DNA of 64,000 bases from an uncultured virus (IMG/VR IMGVR_UViG_3300013232_000154) (IMGVR_UViG_3300013232_000154), one strand, 5' to 3'. Shown: positions 21,060 to 50,874, counted from the stretch's first letter. Program-made: numbers and translations. The notes: generated by a model from the letters alone, not told the origin.

Positions 21060-22838
21060 CTACCTGTTCCCCATGTAGACAACGCCAGACTTCGGCAGGG
21101 CCTTGGCGACAAGATTGGTAAGGGCCTGATACGTTGCCCCAGCCAATGCGTCACAACAGTCGTCCGTCGGGTACTCAGATTGCTTGTCTGGATCTATCTT
21201 GTAGCCTCTCGATGTTGCCCTACCTCTAAGGTTCTTCAACTCTCCGATGAGATAATCATGCTGATAAAGAACCAAGTCCCCCTCGTTCACCAAGTTCCTT
21301 AACTCCACGTAGATCTTTGTGGTATAGGTTGGTATGAACGGAGTCTCTTCAGTCCTCAACCCAGACATCGTGAGCCGCTCCAGCATCTGGGCCGACTGGA
21401 ATGTATCAGCCGTTATCTTCGCGACTGGGAACCTCTTGCATAGATCCCTGATGTACTGCTCGACGGTTGACAGCAATGGCGGCCCTTGCTTCGTTGGCGT
21501 CCAGACCTTCATGAGGTCAAGGACGACTTGCCTCTTAATGTGGCCCCATTGGTTTTGGAGGGTGATCACATGAACGAGGGCCACAGCGAAGTTGTGGCTG
21601 CTCTTCGAGGCGTCGAAGTGAATGTAGTACGAGTACCGTGGATCTCCGAACTTTGCCTCGGTCATCAACGGGTTTATGCAGTCGTTTATCTTCTGCTCGT
21701 TGAAGAACTTCTCTCCGATTTCTGCCTGGAATCGTGCGTTCCACGTGCTGTAGTACTTGACTGGGTCCTTTGGTTTTTCCCTGGTTTCTAGAGACTCCTT
21801 GGAGAACTCCTTGTTAGGGTTCATCCTCCAGGTCGGCAACTGTAGGGCTAGGATCTCCTCGTGGAGATGGTTTATCTTGCCCTCAAGCTCTTCCCTCTCC
21901 TGCGCCATCTTGAATAGCTTGTAGAAGGTTCCTTCCTTGCCTCTCGGGTCGCTCAGTAACACGACCTTTCCGTCTATGCCGAACTGGATTGTGGATGGGA
22001 CAAGCGCTCCGTACACCTCGTCTCCAGAAGACTTGCCGCTGGAGGTTTGGAAGTGGGCGAACTCGTCAAACAATATGCAGATTGCGGCTTGTCCTCGCAA
22101 GGATGCGGAGTTCGAGTGTCCTGACTTCAAGACTACCGAGCCGTCGAGCATGATGCTCATTCCGCGCTGCTTACGACTTGAGTTTTCTCTCTTGTCGGCG
22201 TCCGTGAGCAAGTAGATCGTGTCGCTGGTCGTGGCCCCGTGATTGATCTTGTCCGAGAAGTACGGGGAACGAGCTATGCGTGACTGGATTTCCTTGAACA
22301 ACGGGTCATATGCCTGCTTTTCCGACACGGCGACGTTGAGGATGGCAATGGGCTTGTCCGGAGAAAGCCTGTAGAACTTGTGCGGGTTTCCTTCTGGGCA
22401 TTCCAGAAGCTTGTAGGCCTCGTACGCGGCGATGATCGACACGAGCATGGTCTTTGAAGAGCGTCGTCCCATGACCAGCAACAACTGGTTGTGGGGTACT
22501 CTGCGCATGTACTTGTCAATTACTTGTCTGAAGCCGCCCTTGTCCTCGTCGTAATCCAGTTCCTCGTTCAACGCGATGTCAAGAAGGATGTTGAGTTCGT
22601 GTTCGCTTAACTCAAGATGCTCGTTCCCTCTGGTTCCGCGATAGAACAGCTTCAGGACGATTCGTTGCATGTCCCATAGGGTAACTGGTGGATCTTGCCC
22701 CAAGAAGTTCAGGAACCGGGGGTCTTCGCAAAAGGTGATGATGTCGACGACCTTGTGCTCTTTTGACGACGAGGCCCTGGCGTCTTGGAGAACCTGGTCA
22801 ATCAACGACGCCATCTCATTTTTCTTTTGCTTGGCCAT
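21060..22838 (-). CDS. terL: Terminase large subunit
   Basis: Walker A-like MGRRSSKT, Walker B ILFDEFAHF, coupling motif LSDP, RNase H-like YIHFDAS and TDDCCDALA. Confidence 0.9.
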   Translation of the reverse strand: MAKQKKNEMASLIDQVLQDARASSSKEHKVVDIITFCEDPRFLNFLGQDPPVTLWDMQRIVLKLFYRGTRGNEHLELSEHELNILLDIALNEELDYDEDKGGFRQVIDKYMRRVPHNQLLLVMGRRSSKTMLVSIIAAYEAYKLLECPEGNPHKFYRLSPDKPIAILNVAVSEKQAYDPLFKEIQSRIARSPYFSDKINHGATTSDTIYLLTDADKRENSSRKQRGMSIMLDGSVVLKSGHSNSASLRGQAAICILFDEFAHFQTSSGKSSGDEVYGALVPSTIQFGIDGKVVLLSDPRGKEGTFYKLFKMAQEREELEGKINHLHEEILALQLPTWRMNPNKEFSKESLETREKPKDPVKYYSTWNARFQAEIGEKFFNEQKINDCINPLMTEAKFGDPRYSYYIHFDASKSSHNFAVALVHVITLQNQWGHIKRQVVLDLMKVWTPTKQGPPLLSTVEQYIRDLCKRFPVAKITADTFQSAQMLERLTMSGLRTEETPFIPTYTTKIYVELRNLVNEGDLVLYQHDYLIGELKNLRGRATSRGYKIDPDKQSEYPTDDCCDALAGATYQALTNLVAKALPKSGVVYMGNR

Positions 22839-40842: not shown

Positions 40843-41180
40843 AGACCTACAAGGACTACGGACAGCCCCACTTCAGGCCAGAGTTCCCCGCCTCAAATTT
40901 CTTCGTTCCCTATGGCAAGTCGGGCATGATGGCATTCTGTCCAGATCCAACCAAGAAGAGCAAGCGTCCTAGAATCGTATGGCCAGAAAGCTCGTGGAAG
41001 GGATCTCGATTGAGCATTGTTGCGGCAGTGGCGGCGGCAGAATGGACAATGATGTTCGAATTGTATGCCATCCTTCGGGACGAACACGCGAAAGGACAAA
41101 GAGACCTATGGATGGAGATCTTTAGGGACACTATCAACGCGTGTGGCTGCAAAGGCCTCGTCAATCGTATAATCGACTAG
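40839..41180 (+). CDS. Hypothetical protein
   Basis: GTGA overlap with upstream stop. Confidence 0.5.
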   Translation: MKTYKDYGQPHFRPEFPASNFFVPYGKSGMMAFCPDPTKKSKRPRIVWPESSWKGSRLSIVAAVAAAEWTMMFELYAILRDEHAKGQRDLWMEIFRDTINACGCKGLVNRIID

Positions 41181-41191
41181 AAAGGACGTCC

Positions 41192-41704
41192 ATGAAAAAG
41201 TTCCCCAAGCTGTACTCGGCAAAGTTCTTCCACGTACCTATCAAGAGAAGGGCCATGATCAAGAGCATGGCCCTTCGTCACTGGAAGAAGCTCAACCGTG
41301 CATACAAGACGAGCTTCATGCTCCCATCTATAAAGTACTTCAAGTCCGAGAAATCACTGGGCCTATCGAACTATCTTAACATGGCCCTAAATCATGACCT
41401 GGCAAAGCGAGCCACACGCAAAGATCTGTCGTTCGTCATAGGACACGAGTTGTGTCACAGTATTCTAGGGCTAATATCACTGAAAATACTCAGAGAAGCG
41501 AAGACACATATAAAAATAGCCATGAAAGGTGTAGCCTATATCCAATATCTGCGTTCAGCTAAAAAGTCGATGAGCGCATTGAGGCGCTTAAGAAAATCTG
41601 GTAGTCACGGCTTCGCTTTCAAAGCCGCCATGAACGTCCTCGGGCTAAAGACGACCAGAGGAATGAGATGGGAGCTTGAAGAGGCACAAAAGAAAAAGAA
41701 ATAA
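41192..41704 (+). CDS. SprT-like zinc metalloprotease-domain protein
   Basis: GHELCH (HExxH) and distal HGFAF. Confidence 0.6.
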   Translation: MKKFPKLYSAKFFHVPIKRRAMIKSMALRHWKKLNRAYKTSFMLPSIKYFKSEKSLGLSNYLNMALNHDLAKRATRKDLSFVIGHELCHSILGLISLKILREAKTHIKIAMKGVAYIQYLRSAKKSMSALRRLRKSGSHGFAFKAAMNVLGLKTTRGMRWELEEAQKKKK

Positions 41705-41714
41705 AAAACGAACC

Positions 41715-41743
41715 TTGACAAAGGATTTGGGGTATGATATAGG
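41715..41743 (+). promoter_or_regulatory. Promoter of the tRNA operon leader
   Basis: TTGACA-N17-TATAGG with extended -10 TG. Confidence 0.6.
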
Positions 41744-41787
41744 GTAGATAGCAACGGCGGAGCGGTTCCGCCTAGAGGGTTACTAAG

Positions 41788-41868
41788 ATGTTCCTTGAAG
41801 TCGTGAGAGTTAACCGAGTAAATAATAAGCGTGGCATAAAAGCCAACGCCTCGGGAGACATCACGTAA
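41788..41868 (+). CDS. Putative attenuator leader peptide MFLEVVRVNRVNNKRGIKANASGDIT
   Basis: AGAGGG RBS; codons match the downstream tRNA anticodons; 3' end overlaps the antiterminator strand. Confidence 0.75.
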   Translation: MFLEVVRVNRVNNKRGIKANASGDIT

Positions 41869-41923
41869 GTCCGAACCCCAAAAAGTGATGAAACCCCGAG
41901 GCCAAAAACCTCGGGGTTTTTTT
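41814..41923 (+). promoter_or_regulatory. Transcription attenuator (alternative 1:2, 2:3, 3:4 hairpins)
   Basis: GCCTCGGG..CATCAC (41848-41864) pairs with GTGATG..CCCGAGGC (41885-41902), which overlaps the terminator 5' arm. Confidence 0.75.
41891..41923 (+). terminator. Intrinsic terminator upstream of the tRNA array
   Basis: AAACCCCGAGG-ccaaaaa-CCTCGGGG followed by T7. Confidence 0.85.
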
Positions 41924-42011
41924 GTTGCCGTAAGGAAAAGGAAGGTGGGTCAGATGCGGGTTAAATCGTTCGCCAAACGTTAGTCGGGCCGCGAAAGCGA
42001 CCCGACGATGT

Positions 42012-42087
42012 GGGTCGCAGGCCGACTGGTGAGGCAACGGACTTTTAATCCGTACCCAGCAGGGTTCGATTCCCTGGCGACCTACCA
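42012..42087 (+). tRNA. tRNA-Lys(UUU)
   Basis: ACGGA-CTTTTAA-TCCGT anticodon arm, GGTTCGATTCC, encoded CCA. Confidence 0.9.
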
Positions 42088-42144
42088 AAGACGTGAGACG
42101 CTCCAGAAGTGGTTCGTTCCTGGTTCCATGATGGGGCAGACGTA

Positions 42145-42156
42145 GATCTTTGACAA
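42145..42156 (+). promoter_or_regulatory. boxA-like antitermination element
   Basis: GATCTTTGACAA resembles rrn boxA. Confidence 0.5.
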
Positions 42157-42171
42157 CCGAAGACCGCTAAT

Positions 42172-42246
42172 GGGCCTGTCGTATAATGGCAAGTATGCTA
42201 CCTTGACAGGGTAGAGGAGATGGTTCGATTCCATCCTGGCCCACCA
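42172..42246 (+). tRNA. tRNA-Val(GAC)
   Basis: CTACC-TTGACAG-GGTAG; T arm; CCA. Confidence 0.9.
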
Positions 42247-42280
42247 TTCCCATGTATGATTCCCACAAAGGAGATCTATC

Positions 42281-42775
42281 ATGGAAAAAGACGTCAAAGA
42301 ATTGCTCTCGCCACTCGGAAAAGTAGAAGTGTTCGGATACTGGGGTGGAGTGACTGGCGGGTTCATGATCTGGTGGATGGACGACAAGAACGAGTACGTC
42401 GTAGACTTGACCCACTCGTTCGATGGATTGCAATGGGACACGATCAAGACCGAAGAAGCTTCAATGGCAGAGTTCGTCGAGACTGCCGAGGCCGCTTTGG
42501 CAGATAACCGACCTCTCATCAAATGTGATGATCCAAAGAAGCTTGAAGTCGGTTACCTCCTCTTGGGCGCAAAGGGAGGAACAACGGTTCGCGTCTCGAC
42601 GAGGCTCCATCAGACTGGGCTTGTAGACCCAGAGGTCAGGAAACGATTTGATGGCGTGAGAGAAAGGATGTTTGAATTCCAAGGTGAATCGGTCAAGATC
42701 GGGGCCAGAGTCAATCCGTTGAAGAAGGGTGAGACTTGGACCAGAGGCCGAGATGGAGAGATCGTACCCGAGTAG
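42281..42775 (+). CDS. Hypothetical protein inside the tRNA array
   Basis: 164 aa, AGGAG RBS; stop overlaps the next tRNA. Confidence 0.65.
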   Translation: MEKDVKELLSPLGKVEVFGYWGGVTGGFMIWWMDDKNEYVVDLTHSFDGLQWDTIKTEEASMAEFVETAEAALADNRPLIKCDDPKKLEVGYLLLGAKGGTTVRVSTRLHQTGLVDPEVRKRFDGVRERMFEFQGESVKIGARVNPLKKGETWTRGRDGEIVPE

Positions 42776-42855
42776 CTCAGTTGGTAGAGTAGCAGACTAT
42801 CCGCCACAGCGGCTTAATCTGCCTGTCGTGGGTTCGATTCCCACCTTGGGTACCA
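42766..42855 (+). tRNA. tRNA-Lys(CUU) with 14-nt insertion in the anticodon loop
   Basis: ACCCGAG/CTTGGGT acceptor, GCAGA-CT[ATCCGCCACAGCGG]CTTAA-TCTGC, T arm, CCA. Confidence 0.7.
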
Positions 42856-42866
42856 AGTTTAGGGCA

Positions 42867-43009
42867 TTCCGACGAATGCTGGAAGGGACTACATTTCAAA
42901 GCGCGGACAGGGGTTCGATTCCTCTCGCGAGAACTTGACTCTCGCGTAGCTCAAAGGTAGAGCAGCGCTCTCCCGAAAGGGGTACGTCTCTCCGATTTTG
43001 TCGTCGGGA
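42867..43009 (+). ncRNA. yrlA: Y RNA (YrlA-like) with permuted tRNA-like module
   Basis: Terminal stem TTCCGACGA/TCGTCGGGA, GACGAATG motif; T arm, then loop-closed acceptor stem, then D arm. Confidence 0.7.
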
Positions 43010-43019
43010 CTTTCTTTGT

Positions 43020-43094
43020 TCCTCTCTGGTGACAACGGCAACATGCTTGACTGTTAATCAAGAGATCCTGGTTCGAATCCAGGGAGAGGAGCCA
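43020..43094 (+). tRNA. tRNA-Asn(GUU)
   Basis: TCCTCTC/GAGAGGA, CTTGA-CTGTTAA-TCAAG, G73, CCA. Confidence 0.9.
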
Positions 43095-43100
43095 TAATTT

Positions 43101-43176
43101 GGGTCGCAGGCAGATCTAGTGATTGCACCTGGTTCTTACCCAGGCGAGCTCGGAGCGTAACCGAGGCGACCCACCA
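43101..43176 (+). tRNA. tRNA-Lys(CUU), non-canonical T loop
   Basis: GGGTCGC/GCGACCC, CCTGG-TTCTTAC-CCAGG, T loop AGCGTAA, CCA. Confidence 0.75.
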
Positions 43177-43241
43177 ATATTTTTCCTTAACAAAGAAGGA
43201 AATGCAAAGAGTTCTTTCTAATTTATAAGTGGAGGAAAAAC

Positions 43242-43940
43242 ATGAGAAATATATCAGACCTACGAAGAAGAATGGGCGAAGAGGAATGGCTAGAATACAA
43301 GGCTCTTCAATCTGAGTTGCGCTATGAAAAATATAGTTCTGGAGAGCATGTTACTCGTTGGAGACAGAGAACAAAAATGAAACTCATTCAGTACAAAGGG
43401 GGTAAATGTACAGTTTGTGGATATGACAAACCAGTTCCAAGAGCGTATGATTTTCATCATAAAGATCCAAGCAAAAAGGACTTCACAATAAGCAGTGGGA
43501 TCAAGTCTCTTGATCGTTTGAAGAAAGAAGTAGACAAATGTGATCTATTGTGTTGTCGCTGCCATGCTGAGAAACATGATATGGAAAATTCTGTTATTAG
43601 AAGCATTACAATAACGAAACATGAGAACAAAATAGAAAAACTAAAAGAACTCAGGCGGAGAGCACTCCATAAATATGGAATGTCGGCAGTTGGAGATCTT
43701 ATTAAATGCAAGTTCTGTGGAACCGAAATTGTAGCAGCCAGAGATGGCCAATCAACTTGTAGCAAAGAGTGCAGGCGGCAGTTGAATATCAAAAATAGGA
43801 AATGTAAAAATAGACCTTCGAAAGAAGAACTTAAAGAACTTATTAGCAAGTTACCGTGGACTAAAATTGGACAGATGTACTCCGTAACTGGTAATTCTGT
43901 CAGAAAATGGGCTAGATCTTACGGTTTAATGGCTCGGTAG
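43242..43940 (+). CDS. HNH homing endonuclease
   Basis: CTVCGY...DFHH.DP..KDFTIS...EVDKCDLLCCRCHAEKH; C-terminal Zn ribbon and HTH; AT-rich. Confidence 0.85.
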   Translation: MRNISDLRRRMGEEEWLEYKALQSELRYEKYSSGEHVTRWRQRTKMKLIQYKGGKCTVCGYDKPVPRAYDFHHKDPSKKDFTISSGIKSLDRLKKEVDKCDLLCCRCHAEKHDMENSVIRSITITKHENKIEKLKELRRRALHKYGMSAVGDLIKCKFCGTEIVAARDGQSTCSKECRRQLNIKNRKCKNRPSKEELKELISKLPWTKIGQMYSVTGNSVRKWARSYGLMAR

Positions 43941-44006
43941 CTTAATGGCAAGCAGCATGCTGTTAACATGCCGATAATGTGGGTTCGACTCCCATCCGAG
44001 CCTCCA
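43931..44006 (+). tRNA. tRNA-Asn(GUU) by anticodon, with atypical U73
   Basis: GGCTCGG/CCGAGCC-T-CCA, GCATG-CTGTTAA-CATGC. Confidence 0.8.
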
Positions 44007-44195
44007 ATTACTGTTGACTTGTACTGGTTGTTTGGTACAAACAGTATCAAAAGTGTCCATTGATATGAGGTGATCCATGTGTGAAAAATGCCAGAAAGAG
44101 GTTCAAAAGAAAGCCGAAGAGCGAAAGAGAAAGAGAGCTCTGAAGCGCCTCGTACGCAAGTACCTGCACGACAACGGCTTCCCATATTACTAAAA

Positions 44196-45116
44196 TCATT
44201 CGTCGCGCAGATACACGTTTCCCCAAACATCGGCCACGAAATAGTTACTACCAACGTTGTCGGTGGCGGCTATGAATGACTTGGTTCCGTTTGGAGATAC
44301 AGACCATGCAGTCTCAAATGAACTAAAATCAGAAAAATCGTAGACGGCACATAGGGCTGTTATCTGCCCAGACATCGTGACTTTAAGTTCGTTCAAGAAA
44401 GGATTAGGATACGTTTCGTTCAGGCTGGCCACATAATGAAGGACGCCATTTGCCACCCTATGTATGGAGCAACCGTAAATCATGGTGTCAAAATTCATCT
44501 CTGTCAATCCAACATAAACATCATGGCCGTTTGGACTAACTGTTCCAGTGACGTATGTTACAATATCTGGGCTTGGAGTTGGATAATACAAAACTCGATG
44601 TGAGTATCCTTCAGGAGTTATTCTGACGATTGAGAAACCTGATCCATCTAGGTCTCCATCAGCAACCCAAATTGTACCATCTTTTGTTACGCCGAGTATG
44701 CCGTTGTAACCCAAAGCAATGAAACGAGTACTCCTTCCGTCAACGCCATAAACTGGCTGATCGACAAGTTCCGTGAGAGAACCGCAAATCAAGTTAGCTG
44801 AGGCCGCGCCGACTTCGTAAGAGAAAAGCGCTCCTCCAAACGGCCAATCCCACGTACTCGTGGTCGGACAACTAATATAAAGCTTGTTGTCTGGTCCACA
44901 TTTTGGAGAACTCAACTCATCATGGTAAATAGATACCAGTTTGGATACTTGGCCCGTCATGTCCATGAAATAGGTACCATACATATCTTCATTATATTTC
45001 TGGACATAGAATCCATGGTTTCTGCTCGCGGAAAAGGTGTACGAAATAGGCCCATCATAGATCGTGGCCAGATTGGATCCGCCATCTACCCTTGGAATAA
45101 CCTTGCTGAATTTCAT
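44196..45116 (-). CDS. Divergent beta-propeller/NHL-like protein
   Basis: GVTKDGTIWVAD, ADVWGNVYL; GAGGAG RBS. Confidence 0.6.
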   Translation of the reverse strand: MKFSKVIPRVDGGSNLATIYDGPISYTFSASRNHGFYVQKYNEDMYGTYFMDMTGQVSKLVSIYHDELSSPKCGPDNKLYISCPTTSTWDWPFGGALFSYEVGAASANLICGSLTELVDQPVYGVDGRSTRFIALGYNGILGVTKDGTIWVADGDLDGSGFSIVRITPEGYSHRVLYYPTPSPDIVTYVTGTVSPNGHDVYVGLTEMNFDTMIYGCSIHRVANGVLHYVASLNETYPNPFLNELKVTMSGQITALCAVYDFSDFSSFETAWSVSPNGTKSFIAATDNVGSNYFVADVWGNVYLRDE

Positions 45117-45173
45117 ACGTGTTTCTCCTCTCAGTATGGTTCTGTTGAAACCATGCTGAACCCTTGAGTTTGT

Positions 45174-45248
45174 GTCCTCGTGGTGTAGTGGAACGCATAC
45201 ATCCCTGCGAAGGATGTGGAGCAGGTCCGATTCCTGCCGAGGATACCA
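45174..45248 (+). tRNA. tRNA-Arg(GCG)
   Basis: CATCC-CTGCGAA-GGATG; T loop TCCGATT; CCA. Confidence 0.85.
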
Positions 45249-45249
45249 C

Positions 45250-45897
45250 TTAGAACTCTGCACGTTCTGGGAAAACCCAGCCTCCGTCGCGGAGGAATAC
45301 TTCCGCCGTCCTGCCCCAGAACGGCCTTCTTACATTCACGTTGGGCAAGGAGAAGTAGACGTTGTTGAAGCTGATCCCATCCATCCCGTACATCGGCGAG
45401 AGGATGTCATGGATCGCCTTGAGGGTACAATGCGGGTATTCAGCACAGATCACTTTTGGCCATGGGCCATTCTTGATGACGTCAGCAAGAATGGTCGGCT
45501 CGTGGCCTTCAACGTCGAGACAAAGCAAGTCAAGCTGCTCGATCCCAGCCAAGGCCATGACAGTGGCAAGGCGGATGGCTCGAGTTCCACTCTCGCCATC
45601 CTTCGTGGGTCGCTCCACTACCTCGTTCCTGAAGACCACCGTTCCATCGTGGTCAGAAAGGGCGGCATGGAGGTTAAGCAGCGAATTCGGTCGGTATCCG
45701 AGGAGCTTGTCGTAGCTGGCCTTGGTTCCCTCTATGTTGATTCCTTTCCAGCCCATGTCCTCGAACGCCTTGCAACACGATAGCGACACGCCATCGGCTG
45801 CACCGCATTCCAGGAACGTCCCGATGGGCTGACTCTCAAAATAGTTCTTGAACAAGACCTCGTCAACGGGTGGATTCCATTGGCCATACCATCCCAT
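45250..45897 (-). CDS. FkbM family methyltransferase
   Basis: FLECGAADG...GWKGINIE...LDLLCLDVEGHE. Confidence 0.85.
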   Translation of the reverse strand: MGWYGQWNPPVDEVLFKNYFESQPIGTFLECGAADGVSLSCCKAFEDMGWKGINIEGTKASYDKLLGYRPNSLLNLHAALSDHDGTVVFRNEVVERPTKDGESGTRAIRLATVMALAGIEQLDLLCLDVEGHEPTILADVIKNGPWPKVICAEYPHCTLKAIHDILSPMYGMDGISFNNVYFSLPNVNVRRPFWGRTAEVFLRDGGWVFPERAEF

Positions 45898-45899
45898 GT

Positions 45900-46850
45900 T
45901 CAGCCTCCGAGTTCTTTGGCGAGAGAGTTCAGCGCATGCGCGGCTGATACCTCATCTGGACCATACAATGGCTCTGGAGCGAAAAGCTTGGTCTTGTAGC
46001 CAGGAATCTTTGCTAGGCTGTCTCTGACGCCATGCCAGCCAGGAGACATCCCGCCAGTTCCGCCGAACACGAAGACTAGCGGCGAGCCAGCGTAAAGCAT
46101 TAGGCCAGCCGTCCCAGTGTTAGACGTGAAGGATGCCACAGCTTGCGAATGCATGGCGAGTTCCAGATCCATGTGGTTCTCGAAACCAACCATGTCCTCC
46201 ACGTATTCGCAAGGTAGCTTGGTGGCCTCATGCTTCGGACAAGTGACATAGAAGTCAAAACCATACTTCGACAGTTTACCATGCAACATCTCCCACGAGT
46301 GGTAGTCGCGGGCCTCGTGTCCATTGAGCCTGGTCTTGGCTCCAAGAGTGAAGAACTTCTTCTTGGCGGACAAGGTCTTGGCAATCTCCAATGCCTTTGG
46401 GGACGGTTCTGGCAATCCATAGCGGCTGTAGTCGAACGCCATGGACGGTGGAGAATAGGCTCCTTCATGCAGTTCGCTGCCGCTTATGTTCATGGTCGAA
46501 CAGATCAAAGCAACGTCTCTGGCCCTATTCACCTTTCTGGATTCTTCTGGCTTGCTTGAGTTCCAGTTCAGGATGCCCCAGTACTCGTCGGCGAAACCAT
46601 AAAGCGGATGCCAGCCAACATACCCAGCCACGATCGTGTGAAAACCGTTGGCCTTGGCCTCGGCGCATCCATGCGCCCTGCTTGGACGACCACAAATCAG
46701 TTCTATTCCAAGCTCGCATGGGTATCCGTAGTAGATGGCGATAGGCTGGTTTCTGATGCGTTCCTTTCTGATCAGTCTATACCCGCGCCCCTTGGTCGAG
46801 GCATGTTCGCAAGGCAGTTCTTGGACGGTACCTTCGGCAAGAAGTTTCAT
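45900..46850 (-). CDS. Putative glycosyltransferase-like protein (GT-B/GT9-like)
   Basis: ELGIEL N-terminal motif; RDYHSW, FTSNTGTAGLM..AGSP..FVFG; adjacent to FkbM. Confidence 0.45.
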   Translation of the reverse strand: MKLLAEGTVQELPCEHASTKGRGYRLIRKERIRNQPIAIYYGYPCELGIELICGRPSRAHGCAEAKANGFHTIVAGYVGWHPLYGFADEYWGILNWNSSKPEESRKVNRARDVALICSTMNISGSELHEGAYSPPSMAFDYSRYGLPEPSPKALEIAKTLSAKKKFFTLGAKTRLNGHEARDYHSWEMLHGKLSKYGFDFYVTCPKHEATKLPCEYVEDMVGFENHMDLELAMHSQAVASFTSNTGTAGLMLYAGSPLVFVFGGTGGMSPGWHGVRDSLAKIPGYKTKLFAPEPLYGPDEVSAAHALNSLAKELGG

Positions 46851-46930
46851 TCGTATCTCCTTTGCTAATGATATTGACACAAAGGCTTGCGCTTCCTTTT
46901 GGACGTATAATTTATCCAAAGGAGACGCAC

Positions 46931-47533
46931 GTGATAATCATCAAAGGCGGCAAGGAGAAACCAAAGGACTTCGTGACGATGATGGACTGGTTCGAGAGGC
47001 GTACCAAGAACCATATCCGCCTCGTCCAGAAGTACTGTGGTAAGATATACAAACATGACCCAAAAAAGTTCAAGGGGATCATCGACCGTGGCAGGGCACA
47101 CGACGAGAGCAAGTTCAAGGAACCAGAACTTGATCCATACGTCCTGATCGCCTGGCGGTACAAATGCAAGCGCGACAAGAAGGACTTTGCTGGATACATC
47201 GGCGACTCCAAAGCGATGGAGGAGGCCGAGAAGGAGATGGTTGCTGCCACAGAGCATCACATCAAGAACAATCCTCATCATCCCGAGTATCACACTGAAC
47301 AAGTCGGAAATCTGATCAACAAGGACAACCGAGACAAGCCACCAGAGAAGATGATTGATGCCACCAAGATGGGAGACATAGACATCGGTGAGATGGTCGC
47401 CGACTGGTGTGCGATGTCTGAGGAGCTTGCCGACGACCCGATCAAGTGGGCGGACAAGAACGTCAACGTTAGGTGGAAGTTCACGGACAAGCAGAAAGAC
47501 TTGATCTATGAGTTGATCAAGGCGATTTGGTAG
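46931..47533 (+). CDS. DUF5662-like HD-type protein
   Basis: HDESKF..PE, HHIKNNPHHPEY, EMVADW; AGGAG RBS before GTG. Confidence 0.75.
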   Translation: MIIIKGGKEKPKDFVTMMDWFERRTKNHIRLVQKYCGKIYKHDPKKFKGIIDRGRAHDESKFKEPELDPYVLIAWRYKCKRDKKDFAGYIGDSKAMEEAEKEMVAATEHHIKNNPHHPEYHTEQVGNLINKDNRDKPPEKMIDATKMGDIDIGEMVADWCAMSEELADDPIKWADKNVNVRWKFTDKQKDLIYELIKAIW

Positions 47534-47603
47534 GGGACCTCTGGTCGAGGGGGCTAGGCTTATAACCAAGCTATTGTGGGTCCGATTCCCACTCCTACCA
47601 CCA
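47529..47603 (+). tRNA. tRNA-Ile(UAU)
   Basis: GGTAGGG/TCCTACC-A-CCA; CTAGG-CTTATAA-CCAAG; T loop TCCGATT. Confidence 0.75.
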
Positions 47604-47735
47604 TGGATCGAATGCGGGTGGGAGTACATCCAATGCTAATGGAGAGTTCTGGGTTCGAGTCCCAGCGGCCCAGCTTGATTGGGCCGTAGCTTAACGGTAA
47701 AGCGCTAAAAACCTCTCGCCAATTTTGTCGATCCA
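47604..47735 (+). ncRNA. yrlA: Y RNA (YrlA-like) with permuted tRNA-like module
   Basis: TGGATCGA/TCGATCCA stem, CGAATGC motif; CTGGG-TTCGAGT-CCCAG, CGGCCCA-loop-TGGGCCG, GCTT-AACGGTA-AAGC. Confidence 0.7.
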
Positions 47736-47759
47736 AATTTTCTAAGAATCGTGGAGCCA

Positions 47760-48113
47760 ATGACCAAAGCCCACTATACCAAACAAGTTTATGCATGGGA
47801 GCGCGACCTGATCGGTTTTCAACGCCTCTCAGCCCTACCAATTGGGAAACTTAGGGCATGGGCAAAGAACATATGGAAGAAAGAGCGTCCGCTAAAGTCC
47901 ATGCCCAAAATCGTCGCTGGGAAAGGAATCAGGTACTTAAATGAGTACATGAGTTTTTCGGAAAACAATTTGATAGTGCTATCGCGACACCAACGGAACA
48001 GGCTAGTCCTTCTTCATGAGATATGCCATTACCTGGGGACTAATCACGAACTTGATCACGGTCCTGTATTTCAAGATCGCTACGCAACAATGTTCTTCAA
48101 GTACTTAGTTTGA
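47760..48113 (+). CDS. SprT-like HExxH protein
   Basis: LLHEICHYL...DHGPVF. Confidence 0.65.
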   Translation: MTKAHYTKQVYAWERDLIGFQRLSALPIGKLRAWAKNIWKKERPLKSMPKIVAGKGIRYLNEYMSFSENNLIVLSRHQRNRLVLLHEICHYLGTNHELDHGPVFQDRYATMFFKYLV

Positions 48114-48115
48114 TT

Positions 48116-48189
48116 GGGCCTGTCGTATAACGGCAGTACATTTGCTTCACACGCAAGTGGCGGAGGTTCGACTCCTCCCTGGCCCACCA
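48116..48189 (+). tRNA. tRNA-Val(CAC)
   Basis: TTTGC-TTCACAC-GCAAG; T arm; CCA. Confidence 0.9.
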
Positions 48190-48270
48190 TGACCGAATGC
48201 AGAACGGGAGTACATCTTTCCTGTGCAAAGAACGCCCGCAAGGGCTACTCTCGTTCACTCTTGTCGGTCA
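48190..48270 (+). ncRNA. Short Y-RNA-like RNA lacking the tRNA module
   Basis: TGACCGA/TCGGTCA stem, CGAATGC...GGGAGTACAT...TTGTCG shared with the other two. Confidence 0.6.
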
Positions 48271-48275
48271 ATTTC

Positions 48276-48350
48276 GCCCCCGTAGTGTAAAAGACAGCAT
48301 GCAGAGCTTCTAACTCTGCGGAGAAGGAGCGTTACCTTCCGGGGGTACCA
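48276..48350 (+). tRNA. tRNA-Arg(UCU), non-canonical T loop
   Basis: CAGAG-CTTCTAA-CTCTG; T loop AGCGTTA; CCA. Confidence 0.8.
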
Positions 48351-48375
48351 CTGACGTACCAACCAAAACGCAGAT

Positions 48376-48450
48376 GCCCCCGTAGTGTAAAAGACAGCAT
48401 GCGATGCTTCGAACGTCGCGGAGAAGGAGCGTTACCTTCCGGGGGTACCA
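48376..48450 (+). tRNA. tRNA-Arg(UCG), duplicate body of the previous tRNA
   Basis: CGATG-CTTCGAA-CGTCG; otherwise identical to 48276-48350. Confidence 0.8.
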
Positions 48451-48482
48451 AACTTGGTGTACAATTAGCCTAGGAGAACGCG

Positions 48483-48785
48483 ATGGATCTTTCTGAGGCC
48501 ATTGACATATGGGAAGGGGTTGCTACTGGCTCGGTCAACCGCCTGGACCCGAGATTCCTAGAATCCATCAGACAGTTCGGCCTGATCCTTGAATGTAAGA
48601 AGAACGACCTGGCTGCGGACGTTTTTGTCCGTTCTGGTCTTTGTTCATCGAAGGGAGACTTCAAGCGCTCCCTTGGCGGGCTTCGGCTCAATGAGTCTCC
48701 AGTTACCATAGACATGACCATTGGCGCGACATCACTGCTCAGAAAAGGAAAGAACTCCGTCGTATTGGCCATCGTAGCCGAGTAG
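48483..48785 (+). CDS. Stand-alone S4-like RNA-binding protein resembling the TyrRS C-terminal domain
   Basis: DVFVRSGLCSSKGDFKR..GGLRLN...LLRKGKN. Confidence 0.7.
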   Translation: MDLSEAIDIWEGVATGSVNRLDPRFLESIRQFGLILECKKNDLAADVFVRSGLCSSKGDFKRSLGGLRLNESPVTIDMTIGATSLLRKGKNSVVLAIVAE

Positions 48786-48840
48786 CGTTTTCAGGTTGAC
48801 AAACGCAGCACTTATCGTACCATCTTGGTGGAGGCATGAG

Positions 48841-49137
48841 ATGAACTGCGAACTCTGCGGGCGGGACGTCCCAAAGGTCACTCGACACCACCTCATCCCC
48901 AAAGCCACCCATACCAAGCGGCTCAAGCGCGAGTTGGGGGACGAGCGGAACGTCCAAGCCGACCTTTGCGTGGCTTGCCATCGTCAGCTTCACTACCTTT
49001 TCGAGAACAAGCTCCTTGGTCGAGAGTTGAACACGCTTGACGCGATCCGTAGGAACGAGGATGTCATCACCTACGTGAAGTGGATCCGAAAGCGGCCAGG
49101 CGACTTCACGCCGAGGAAGGGCGTAAGGAGAAATTAG
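48841..49137 (+). CDS. Small HNH-like protein
   Basis: CELCGR...TRHHLIPK...LCVACHRQLH; promoter TTGACA-N16-TACCAT at 48796. Confidence 0.75.
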   Translation: MNCELCGRDVPKVTRHHLIPKATHTKRLKRELGDERNVQADLCVACHRQLHYLFENKLLGRELNTLDAIRRNEDVITYVKWIRKRPGDFTPRKGVRRN

Positions 49138-49139
49138 TT

Positions 49140-49215
49140 GGGCGTGTAACTCAGTGGCTAGAGTGCGACCCTTACAAGGTCGAAGTCGCAGGTTCGATCC
49201 CTGCCACGCCCACCA
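49140..49215 (+). tRNA. tRNA-Val(UAC)
   Basis: Canonical cloverleaf, CGACC-CTTACAA-GGTCG, CCA. Confidence 0.95.
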
Positions 49216-49228
49216 AAGGGAGACAAGA

Positions 49229-49588
49229 ATGGTTCAATATCCTCCGCCACCGATCGCGTACGAGACCTACTTGATCTGGATGCAAGATTACGACTACGCG
49301 GGAGTCACTCTGGTCGAAGGGCCTCAAGGTGTTGACATCGAAAAGCTGAGGGACGAGTACCATGACACGTGGAAAGCAGCTTTTCGTTCCCACGAGGAAG
49401 CCAGACGCACAGCACGTGAAAAGAAGCTACCAGAACCACCTTCCCCAGAAATTTTGGATCAATACAATAGGCATGTTAGGGAAGTTGCCAACGTCCTATT
49501 CCTTGATGCCCAGACCTACGGATTCGCATGCTGGCTAGTTGACACCAAGGGCTTCAAACACGTCAATGCAAAGCGTGTTTCAATCTAG
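49229..49588 (+). CDS. Hypothetical protein
   Basis: GGGAG RBS. Confidence 0.6.
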   Translation: MVQYPPPPIAYETYLIWMQDYDYAGVTLVEGPQGVDIEKLRDEYHDTWKAAFRSHEEARRTAREKKLPEPPSPEILDQYNRHVREVANVLFLDAQTYGFACWLVDTKGFKHVNAKRVSI

Positions 49589-49637
49589 TTTCCGTGCCGA
49601 CGATGTGGTACAATCAACTCGGACGAGGAGGACGGCC

Positions 49638-49973
49638 ATGGAAGTAAAACCCATCTCCCCGAAAGCCCTCATTGAGGCTCGGAAGAAGCCCGATTTCTTC
49701 CCACCAGAGATCATCGAGGCATTCAACGAGCTGATCGCCAAGAACTTTAACGGACACTCTGCGACGGTGGACCAAGAAGAGGCTCAGGAGTTGGCTATTT
49801 CCAAGATGGCCAAGAACGGACGAAAGATCAGCTCAAAAGACATCTACAATAACGGATGGATGGATATTGAGCCGTTGTTCAGAGACAATGGATGGGAAGT
49901 CGAGTACGACAAGCCTGGATACAACGAGAGTTACGAGGCGTTCTTTGTCTTCACCCCGAAAAGGAAGAAGTGA
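49638..49973 (+). CDS. Hypothetical phage protein
   Basis: GGAGG RBS; GWEVEYDKPGYNESYEA. Confidence 0.65.
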   Translation: MEVKPISPKALIEARKKPDFFPPEIIEAFNELIAKNFNGHSATVDQEEAQELAISKMAKNGRKISSKDIYNNGWMDIEPLFRDNGWEVEYDKPGYNESYEAFFVFTPKRKK

Positions 49974-50526
49974 TACTTGGTTCGGGACAAATACCAGCGA
50001 TATCTCTCCAACACTTGCCTTTAAGCATGGCCACCTTTAGCTGGAATTCTTTATACAACTCTTCAACGTCATTGATCAGACCAGCATGTATCTCTCCGTG
50101 ACAATTGTGACAAACCATAATGCATTTCGAAAGCTCGTTACAAACGTTCTCCATGCTAAGGCTAAGCGCCCTAGAGTCTAGATGTATGTCTTTGTCAAAG
50201 CAGTGATGGAACGTTATGTTTTTGGGTGTTCTTTTATATTTGCATATGATGCACGAGCCACCCAGAAAGTTGACGATAGACATCTTTCTTCTTCTGTTTC
50301 TTTCCGTCACTGGATTTATACCGAGCGCTTTTTTTCTTTTTTCGTAATACCTTTTAGATTTAAGACGGGATGCTTGAACTTTTTCGTCGTCGCTTCTAGG
50401 AGGGTATCTTGGCGCTCCCCAAGGCTGGCATTTCAAGCATCTCCTTCTGTTTCCCATGTTCTTGAGAACGCCATCTATCTTGTTCCACGTCTTGAACTTC
50501 TCCCCGCAAACAGTACATGTAGGCAT
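49951..50526 (-). CDS. HNH homing endonuclease
   Basis: CIICKY...FHH...ELSKCIMVCHNCHGEIH; same family as 43242-43940. Confidence 0.8.
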   Translation of the reverse strand: MPTCTVCGEKFKTWNKIDGVLKNMGNRRRCLKCQPWGAPRYPPRSDDEKVQASRLKSKRYYEKRKKALGINPVTERNRRRKMSIVNFLGGSCIICKYKRTPKNITFHHCFDKDIHLDSRALSLSMENVCNELSKCIMVCHNCHGEIHAGLINDVEELYKEFQLKVAMLKGKCWRDIAGICPEPSITSSFSG

Positions 50527-50564
50527 TGTGGTTTCTCCTAGCACGTAATTCTGCGGTGATATGC

Positions 50565-50592
50565 TTGACTCCTTCTCACTTTTTGGTATCAT
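50565..50592 (+). promoter_or_regulatory. Sigma70-type promoter for the intron-containing tRNA
   Basis: TTGACT-N16-TATCAT. Confidence 0.6.
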
Positions 50593-50609
50593 TCAATATG
50601 GTTGCGGTT

Positions 50610-50874
50610 GGTCCCGTAACTCAGCGGTGAGAGTAGGTGACTTAGGAAACTGGGTCCGCTTAATGGGAACATTAAGTGATAATCTGCCAAATTCGGTGAA
50701 CCCTGTAAAATGGCAACGCCGAGCCAAGCCCCAAAAGGGAAGGTGTAGAGACTAGACGGCAGACATCCAGTACGGATGAAGGCATAGTCCAGACCACGAA
50801 CCGAAAGGGCGGCAAAAGCCGAAGTGGTAAGCATAATCACTTAGTCGCAGGTTCGAATCCTGCCGGGACCACCA
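50610..50874 (+). tRNA. tRNA(CAU), probably Ile2 (lysidine type), interrupted by a group I intron
   Basis: Exons 50610-50642 and 50832-50874 give GGTGA-CTCATAA-TCACT and GGTCCCG/CGGGACC-A-CCA; resembles bacterial Ile2 tRNAs. Confidence 0.85.
50643..50831 (+). mobile_element. Group I intron (189 nt, no ORF)
   Basis: P1 GACTTAG/CTGGGTC with U.G at the splice site; P AATTCGGTGAA, Q AACGCCGAGC, R GTAGAGACTA, S AAGGCATAGTCC; terminal G. Confidence 0.9.

Follow-up and report, generated by a model that had tools for sequence, protein, structure and literature searches.

Leader-peptide attenuation is textbook knowledge for amino-acid operons, and the enterobacterial attenuators are its established examples. 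The ilvGMEDA, ilvBN and thr leaders, which have trp, his, leu and pheA as single-amino-acid counterparts, place a short leader with a multi-amino-acid codon cluster behind a promoter, and add to it mutually exclusive 1:2, 2:3 and 3:4 hairpins, a U-tract terminator and a stop codon positioned so that a finishing ribosome covers segment 2. The same layout is found at the head of the transfer RNA (tRNA) genes of the uncultured virus IMGVR_UViG_3300013232_000154, of which we analyzed a stretch of 64,000 nucleotides, referred to below as the window (64 kb of phage DNA, G+C content ~52%). From the anatomy of this leader, its non-random codon match, its alternative pairings, the fit of ribosome positions to them and the conservation of the whole as a block, we consider it likely to be a ribosome-mediated (trp-type) transcription attenuator which heads the phage tRNA array and sets tRNA output by decoding speed. 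Unlike the enterobacterial leaders, it is encoded by a phage and precedes tRNA genes rather than genes of biosynthetic enzymes. Its codons sample isoacceptors, with each Val codon used once and three Arg codons present, instead of repeating a single codon, and the regulated product of the phage module would be the very molecule that is sensed. The leader does not belong to any of the leader families in Rfam: the best match, Thr_leader (RF00506), reaches 24 bits against a gathering score of 55 and covers 41858-41925, which is mostly terminator. No other Rfam leader family matches the leader at E up to 10, and none appears at E up to 1 in a 13-kb scan.

Two further systems resemble the phage module in what they sense or control. 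Attenuation at the pheM leader governs pheST, an aminoacyl-tRNA synthetase operon. As proposed for the phage module, leader-peptide attenuation of a decoding component raises decoding capacity when cognate codons are read slowly; unlike in the phage module, the target is a synthetase, a single amino acid is sensed and the locus is chromosomal. T-box leaders likewise choose between terminator and antiterminator in a 5′ leader and report the state of a specific tRNA by codon-anticodon matching. They bind the uncharged tRNA directly, through a specifier codon and the T-box motif and without a ribosome, whereas the phage leader carries 13 in-frame codons behind a ribosome site. Neither a T-box nor any other cis-regulatory family was detected in the Rfam scans of the 13 kb and of the leader. 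Our literature search, which did not extend to old scanned papers, returned no account of leader-peptide attenuation or of demand-dependent transcription control of tRNA genes. A Phe-rich leader before an Escherichia coli tRNA-Phe gene may have been described in an old paper; the search did not confirm this. The array itself is of a familiar kind: phage tRNA genes, in T4, T5 and others, serve as tools of codon supply or anti-defence, and the array shares with theirs the interspersed HNH endonuclease genes and small open reading frames (ORFs).

Leader anatomy and alternative pairings

The initial annotation had claimed a promoter, a ribosome-binding site, a 26-codon ORF and a terminator at the head of the array, and each of these elements was recovered where it had been placed. 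The features of the leader, all on the plus strand, are as follows.

41715-41743, plus strand: promoter-like site, with TTGACA as -35 element at 41715-41720, a 17-nt spacer, TG at 41735-36 and TATAGG as -10 element at 41738-41743
41756-41772, plus strand: 5′ hairpin of the leader RNA, with a 6-bp stem and a 5-nt loop, just 5′ of the ribosome site; present in the minimum free energy (MFE) and centroid folds
41775-41780, plus strand: Shine-Dalgarno sequence AGAGGG, 8 nt 5′ of the ATG at 41788
41788-41868, plus strand: leader ORF of 26 codons and a stop, product MFLEVVRVNRVNNKRGIKANASGDIT*, with TAA at 41866-68
41800-41841, plus strand: putative regulatory run, leader codons 5-18; the phage's own tRNAs read 13 of these 14
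41802-41818, plus strand: segment 1 (CGUGA, GUU, CCGAG), pairing with 41850-41865 and enclosing a small hairpin
41848-41865, plus strand: segment 2, pairing with segment 1 or, through GCCUCGGG (41848-55) and CAUCAC (41859-64), with segment 3
41885-41902, plus strand: segment 3, GUGAUG at 41885-90 and CCCGAGGC at 41895-902, the antiterminator partner, overlapping the 5′ arm of the terminator
41890-41926, plus strand: intrinsic terminator (3:4), with a 12-bp G+C-rich stem (41890-41901 with 41909-41920), a 7-nt loop and a T7GTT tail

The leader is a short ORF with a ribosome site, lying in the 5′ leader region 3′ of a promoter-like site whose -10 element is imperfect. Pairing of AGAGGG with a generic anti-Shine-Dalgarno sequence gives -6.3 kcal/mol, which equals the mean of 23 gene starts of the same phage against a background mean of -2.9; 11.6% of random sites pair as well. 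The region 41750-41930 folds at -69.5 kcal/mol, compared with -45.9 +/- 3.8 for shuffled sequences (z = -6.2), and none of 200 shuffles is as stable. The terminator, with its T7 tract, lies 5′ of the first tRNA gene (42012) and folds at -20.5 kcal/mol; no other hairpin of this kind occurs in the window. The alternative 1:2 and 2:3 structures fold at -26.0 and -23.6 kcal/mol, respectively, and the three pairings exclude one another. Both alternatives exceed expectation from shuffled upstream sequence: the 1:2 duplex (-27.5 kcal/mol) is set against -14.5 +/- 3.1, with 2 of 2000 shuffles as strong, and the 2:3 duplex (-25.3 kcal/mol) against -9.5 +/- 2.3, with none of 2000. Once segment 1 is removed, the MFE structure of 41845-41922 is the antiterminator, at -28.2 kcal/mol. 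The coding and structural functions overlap, as the last eight leader codons also serve as segment 2.

We modeled the ribosome by folding nascent transcripts in which the RNA is free from 13 nt beyond the first base of the A-site codon. With the A site at codons 5-15 the full antiterminator is free; at codon 17 it is reduced to -19.5 kcal/mol, at codon 18 to -12.4 kcal/mol, and at the stop codon none is left. The geometry of this footprint model is that of an attenuator, in which a ribosome that stalls leaves segment 2 exposed and one that has reached the stop codon hides it. By the same model, the test codons extend roughly as far as stalling would remain effective.

The proposed mechanism is the following. 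Transcription would start near 41750, and translation of the 26-codon leader would begin. Rapid decoding of codons 5-18 would bring the ribosome to the stop codon, where it would cover segment 2; the 3:4 hairpin would form, and transcription would end at the T-tract without entering the first tRNA. Slow decoding, whether at any single test codon or summed over the run, would hold the ribosome on segment 1, the 2:3 antiterminator would form, and the tRNAs would be transcribed. A transcript carrying no ribosome would form 1:2 and be terminated. The tRNA products would relieve the signal, and since they decode the test codons themselves, the feedback would be direct and self-limiting, holding supply to demand. 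At the minimum, the switch would gate the proximal block of tRNA genes at 42012-44006. We infer that the leader is translated, that ribosomes stall on it and that polymerase reads through into the tRNAs.

Codon match between leader and tRNA genes

ARAGORN finds ten tRNA genes in the window (Lys UUU, Val GAC, Asn GUU twice, Arg GCG, Ile UAU, Val CAC, Arg UCU, Arg UCG and Val UAC), and two more appear when introns are allowed: Lys CUU (42766-42855) and a CAU tRNA with a group I intron (50610-50874). The array had been annotated with 13 tRNAs; the count is 12, and no second CUU tRNA was found. All of the window's tRNAs belong to five amino acids, or six if the CAU tRNA is a Met tRNA. As cognate we counted the 15 codons that the ten unambiguous anticodons can read, namely GUN, AGR, CGN, AAN and AUA.

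Leader codons 5-18 contain 13 cognates: four Val, three Arg, three Asn and two Lys codons and the Ile codon AUA. These are exactly the codons that had been listed for the run, all but GGC being read by the array. All ten unambiguous anticodons are covered, nine of them through a Watson-Crick cognate, and with few exceptions an isoacceptor is sampled a single time. The match is more than chance. Among 86,401 stop-free windows of 14 codons in the six frames of the 64 kb, a single one scores 13 of 14, and this is the leader itself; five windows score 12, three of which overlap the leader. No other ORF among 449 of 20-40 codons has at least 12 cognates. The match is specific to the frame, with 4 and 3 cognates in the other plus-strand frames of the same 42 nt and 2, 0 and 2 in the minus-strand frames. 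When the ORF body is shuffled with its dinucleotides preserved, 3 of 200,000 shuffles reach thirteen cognates. The statistical power of the match is high because the tRNA set is small, with five amino acids. A cluster of putative regulatory codons tied to the downstream genes is thus present, and the attenuator anatomy and codon-anticodon match proposed in the initial annotation are supported by statistics, folding and conservation alike.

The spread over synonymous codons departs from the habits of the phage. In 21 long ORFs (9,670 codons), phage genes prefer AAG (83%) and AAC (76%), and the cognate codons make up 23.7% of usage. When 13 cognate codons are drawn at random from phage usage, complete anticodon coverage arises in 1.9% of draws, and nine or more of the ten Watson-Crick cognates are included in 0.4%; with uniform usage, the corresponding figures are 4.7% and 1.1%. 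Because its synonymous spread covers all ten anticodons, unlike most draws from phage usage, the leader run looks built to sample isoacceptors and not just amino acids.

If the switch is real, phages adjust how much tRNA they make through a direct feedback of the product, with the ribosome as its reader, and phage tRNA arrays would be regulated responses and not constitutive cargo. It would also constitute a compact natural sensor of decoding capacity at the level of isoacceptors. This instance is unusually testable, having a small tRNA set and codons that can be swapped singly.

Relatives and competing explanations

To 20 public sequencing runs from 17 studies (wastewater, bioreactor, sediment and freshwater) can be traced 6-15% of the words of 41100-43100 each. 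We compared four runs from four studies, denoted X1, X5, X6 and X8, and all four have contigs on the leader. The block 41703-41937 is ~94-99% identical in these relatives, the identities being estimated from listed differences and gaps, whereas its surroundings, the gene upstream and the content downstream, are different. X5 shows 2 differences in 151 nt, X1 shows 13 differences and 7 gap letters in 488 nt, X6 shows 11 differences and 1 gap in 204 nt, and X8 shows 5 differences and 6 inserted letters in 235 nt. The likeness begins at 41703 in X8 and at 41683 in X1; other sequence lies upstream, the gene for a SprT-like protein being replaced, and the promoter therefore travels with the leader. 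Downstream, the likeness ends at 41937 in X6 and X8, where the next 154 nt, including tRNA-Lys UUU, are replaced by 10 letters; in X1, 42250-42767 are replaced by 484 other letters. Contigs that run past the terminator continue into tRNA-Lys UUU (X1) or into a conserved stretch before tRNA-Val (X6 and X8). The spacer between tRNA-Lys UUU and tRNA-Val GAC (42092-42170) is itself kept in X1, X6 and X8, including the relatives that lack the tRNA-Lys gene.

Among the changes listed within the block, only 41763 C>T is common to all four relatives, and it lies in the loop of the 5′ hairpin. In X8, four of the five substitutions and all six inserted letters fall within 41763-41799, leaving at most one substitution in the 138 nt of 41800-41937; two substitutions and three single-base insertions turn its ribosome site, as reconstructed, into GAGGAG. 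The ORF itself shows, among the changes listed, one indel, an in-frame CTG after codon 4, and one substitution, a synonymous CTT>CTC in codon 3, both in X8. A 1-nt deletion at 41880 in X1 falls within the 2:3 loop. By comparison, a neighboring ORF on another X8 contig of the same run, which may stem from a different genome, differs over 549 nt by 74 letters and 14 gaps. Of the 35 substitutions listed for it, 23 are at third codon positions, so this ORF evolves as a normal gene. X1, X5 and X8 also contain a second type of module, with the same terminator and the same GCCTCGGG partner separated by a different, shorter spacer. The 21-nt motif of this second type is absent from the window, and its occurrence in the relatives hints at a family of such switches.

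Several observations weigh against an attenuator of the tRNA genes. The promoter-like site is imperfect in its -10 element and was not picked up by the consensus scan, because this element lacks the final T. The folding with a masked ribosome that had been proposed as a check gave a divided answer: the nascent-transcript folds free the antiterminator as described above, but equilibrium folding of the full-length RNA under a simple ribosome mask never displaces the terminator, which retains 11 or 12 of the 12 pairs at all 27 stall positions. Since the terminator persists at equilibrium, the switch must be kinetic, as in the trp leader. Only one to three codons test each isoacceptor. Six of the 13 matched codons (GTG, AGA, CGA, GTA, CGT and ATA) belong to distal tRNAs at 45174-49215, which lie beyond minus-strand genes. 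X6 and X8 are devoid of the adjacent tRNA-Lys(UUU) gene, yet no change of the AAA codon is found among the variants listed. The high identity of the block could come in part from recent cassette exchange, and the comparison contains no diverged homologue in which compensatory pair changes might be counted. The only one of the 20 runs labeled as RNA-Seq is X8; the label is a guess, and the run may be DNA.

A search for similar leaders in other phages also counts against this reading. We scanned an arbitrary sample of five named phages, picked by tRNA similarity (RSP15, JustBecause, GodonK, GAP31 and TSW001). In the whole-locus scan of their 44 tRNA heads, no upstream window stands out, the best per-window p being 0.005 with 61-341 windows per head, whereas the leader of the window scores 10 of 10 with p = 4e-5; the scan has little power for arrays that cover more than 35 codons. 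An earlier form of the scan with 3-kb blocks, applied to 29 tRNA heads of three of the named phages, gave a lowest per-window p of 0.001 and also missed the window's own leader, because the codons of that leader match the whole 9-kb array. As no comparable leader is seen in the five phages, the device is not universal.

The strongest competitor retains the mechanism and changes the trigger: the switch would serve as an inducible counter-defence, triggered when anticodon nucleases or comparable defences destroy host tRNAs, with the Lys, Asn, Arg, Val and Ile tRNAs as the targeted set, replaced by the phage under attack alone. Known nucleases cut tRNA-Lys, tRNA-Arg and tRNA-Asn (PrrC, colicin D and colicin E5); no Val- or Ile-specific nuclease was tied to the tRNA set. 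The restriction of the array to five amino acids with near-complete isoacceptor sets (Val three, Arg three, Lys two) fits such a function, and a single codon for each isoacceptor is better matched to complete loss of a tRNA than to a slight shortfall. Phage tRNAs are also reported to evade retrons and other tRNA-targeting defences (PMC11555353). On the other hand, the phage itself uses these codons, at the frequency given above, and matching of supply to demand explains the set equally well. An attenuator cannot distinguish a cleaved tRNA from a scarce or uncharged one, and nothing in the window identifies a host defence or a host. We regard this trigger as unlikely. If true, it would mean an inducible, self-limiting circuit made from a mini-ORF and RNA hairpins alone. 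Its fuller form, a codon-by-codon sensor of tRNA loss that delivers replacement tRNAs on demand for about ten isoacceptors, all of them species destroyed by host defences or competitors, with related modules gating other tRNA sets, seems to us similarly unlikely.

It is less probable still that the ORF is a product of chance, or untranslated, beside an ordinary terminator or insulator of the upstream operon, with the tRNAs expressed from other starts or by leaky read-through and the pairings without regulatory role. The upstream SprT-like gene ends at 41704 and has no terminator of its own, the -10 element is weak, and the terminator always wins in the equilibrium masked folds, all of which would fit such an arrangement. 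However, the codon match is extreme and frame-specific, the 1:2 and 2:3 pairings exceed those of shuffled sequences, and the relatives keep the block from promoter to terminator, along with the frame and the ribosome site, while the upstream gene is replaced. A stand-alone micro-gene for a small basic peptide of 26 residues, with a function of its own unrelated to tRNAs, would account for a complete unit conserved as a cassette, but is very improbable, as it leaves unexplained the synonymous spread over every isoacceptor of the array, the doubling of the last eight codons as segment 2 and the presence of tRNA genes after the terminator in the X1, X6 and X8 contigs.

Genes behind the terminator and the phage background

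The features downstream of the terminator, again on the plus strand, are listed below; the tRNA and protein genes up to 44006, together with the element at 42869-42993, fall within the proximal block.

42012-42087, plus strand: tRNA-Lys UUU (ARAGORN), the first tRNA after the terminator
42172-42246, plus strand: tRNA-Val GAC (ARAGORN)
42281-42775, plus strand: ORF of 164 amino acids within the proximal block
42766-42855, plus strand: tRNA-Lys CUU, with a 14-nt insert in the anticodon loop (Rfam tRNA, 56.4 bits)
42869-42993, plus strand: YrlA-like element, a sub-threshold Rfam match
43020-43094, plus strand: tRNA-Asn GUU (ARAGORN)
43242-43940, plus strand: HNH endonuclease ORF of the proximal block
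43931-44006, plus strand: second tRNA-Asn GUU (ARAGORN)
45174-45248, plus strand: tRNA-Arg GCG (ARAGORN)
47529-47603, plus strand: tRNA-Ile UAU (ARAGORN)
48116-48189, plus strand: tRNA-Val CAC (ARAGORN)
48276-48350, plus strand: tRNA-Arg UCU (ARAGORN; Rfam, 45.1 bits)
48376-48450, plus strand: tRNA-Arg UCG (ARAGORN; absent from the Rfam matches)
49140-49215, plus strand: tRNA-Val UAC (ARAGORN)
50610-50874, plus strand: CAU tRNA with a group I intron of 189 nt at 50643-50831 (RF00028, 61.8 bits against a gathering score of 50)

Of the 13 matched codons, 7 are served by tRNAs of the proximal block, and the consensus scan finds no plus-strand promoter-like site between the terminator and the first tRNAs (41921-42172). 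Direct control by the leader is plausible for this block only. Over the whole array such control is doubtful, because a minus-strand block and promoter-like sites at 48796 and 50565 intervene, the latter having been anticipated as internal promoters. The clearest of these distal sites (50565-50592) lies directly 5′ of the CAU tRNA. No second leader-like window was found before the other tRNA heads of the window. The distal tRNAs might be reached by longer run-through transcripts, the minus-strand block might have been inserted later, or the leader might report on the whole repertoire. The minus-strand block (44196-46919) comprises three ORFs, including a FkbM-type methyltransferase (45250-45897, E = 2e-8), and splits the plus-strand array; tRNA-Arg GCG sits between two of its ORFs. 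An ARAGORN call with a 324-nt "intron" in this region (45209-45605) was taken as an artefact.

Individual tRNA genes show peculiarities of their own. The 14 extra bases of tRNA-Lys(CUU) lie just 5′ of the anticodon and could fold into a small CCGC/GCGG hairpin; exactly these bases are missing from the X1 and X8 relatives, which have a normal 7-nt loop. The gene with the insert could be disabled, act as a decoy or encode an altered anticodon loop. The tRNA-Arg UCU and UCG genes are tandem copies of almost the same sequence, with differences in the anticodon arm, and both have an unusual T-loop. For the intron-split tRNA we infer the anticodon CAU and not ARAGORN's UAG, because the exon sequence GACU pairs with GGUC of the intron and the intron ends in G; this reading follows the general rules of group I splicing, and the tRNA may be Ile2 or Met. 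The acceptor-stem pairs C4-G69 and C5-G68 may be reminiscent of tRNA-Ile2.

Three elements directly 3′ of tRNA genes (42869-42993, 47605-47737 and 48190-48275) share the motif GAATGC..GGGA.TACAT, with three matches where none is expected. Two of the three match YrlA at 34.9 and 47 bits, below the gathering score of 69, and the elements may be phage Y-RNA-like or tRNA-like RNAs. The 164-amino-acid ORF has no family match and no informative neighbor in the Atlas.

The window also encodes a large terminase (21060-22838, minus strand), a polymerase-like protein, DNA methyltransferases and HNH endonucleases. Neither megablast nor distant blastn found a relative among 50,697 phage records, and the terminase is <28% identical to the best of 404 matching phage records; on sequence comparison, the phage is far from every listed phage. 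Candidate relatives from wider scans were set aside: two IMG/VR pattern matches (L001 and L002) and four loci of the GTDB genome scan (L005-L008) are chance matches without tRNAs, and the locus from the JGI metagenome scan (L004) is unrelated. A further IMG/VR match (L003) is a distant terminase locus with 30% identity. Two small SprT-like proteins (PF10263) flank parts of the tRNA array, at 41141-41704 and 47751-48113, the second match being below the Pfam cut-off. The upstream one has three metagenome relatives, with 82, 77 and 50% identity.

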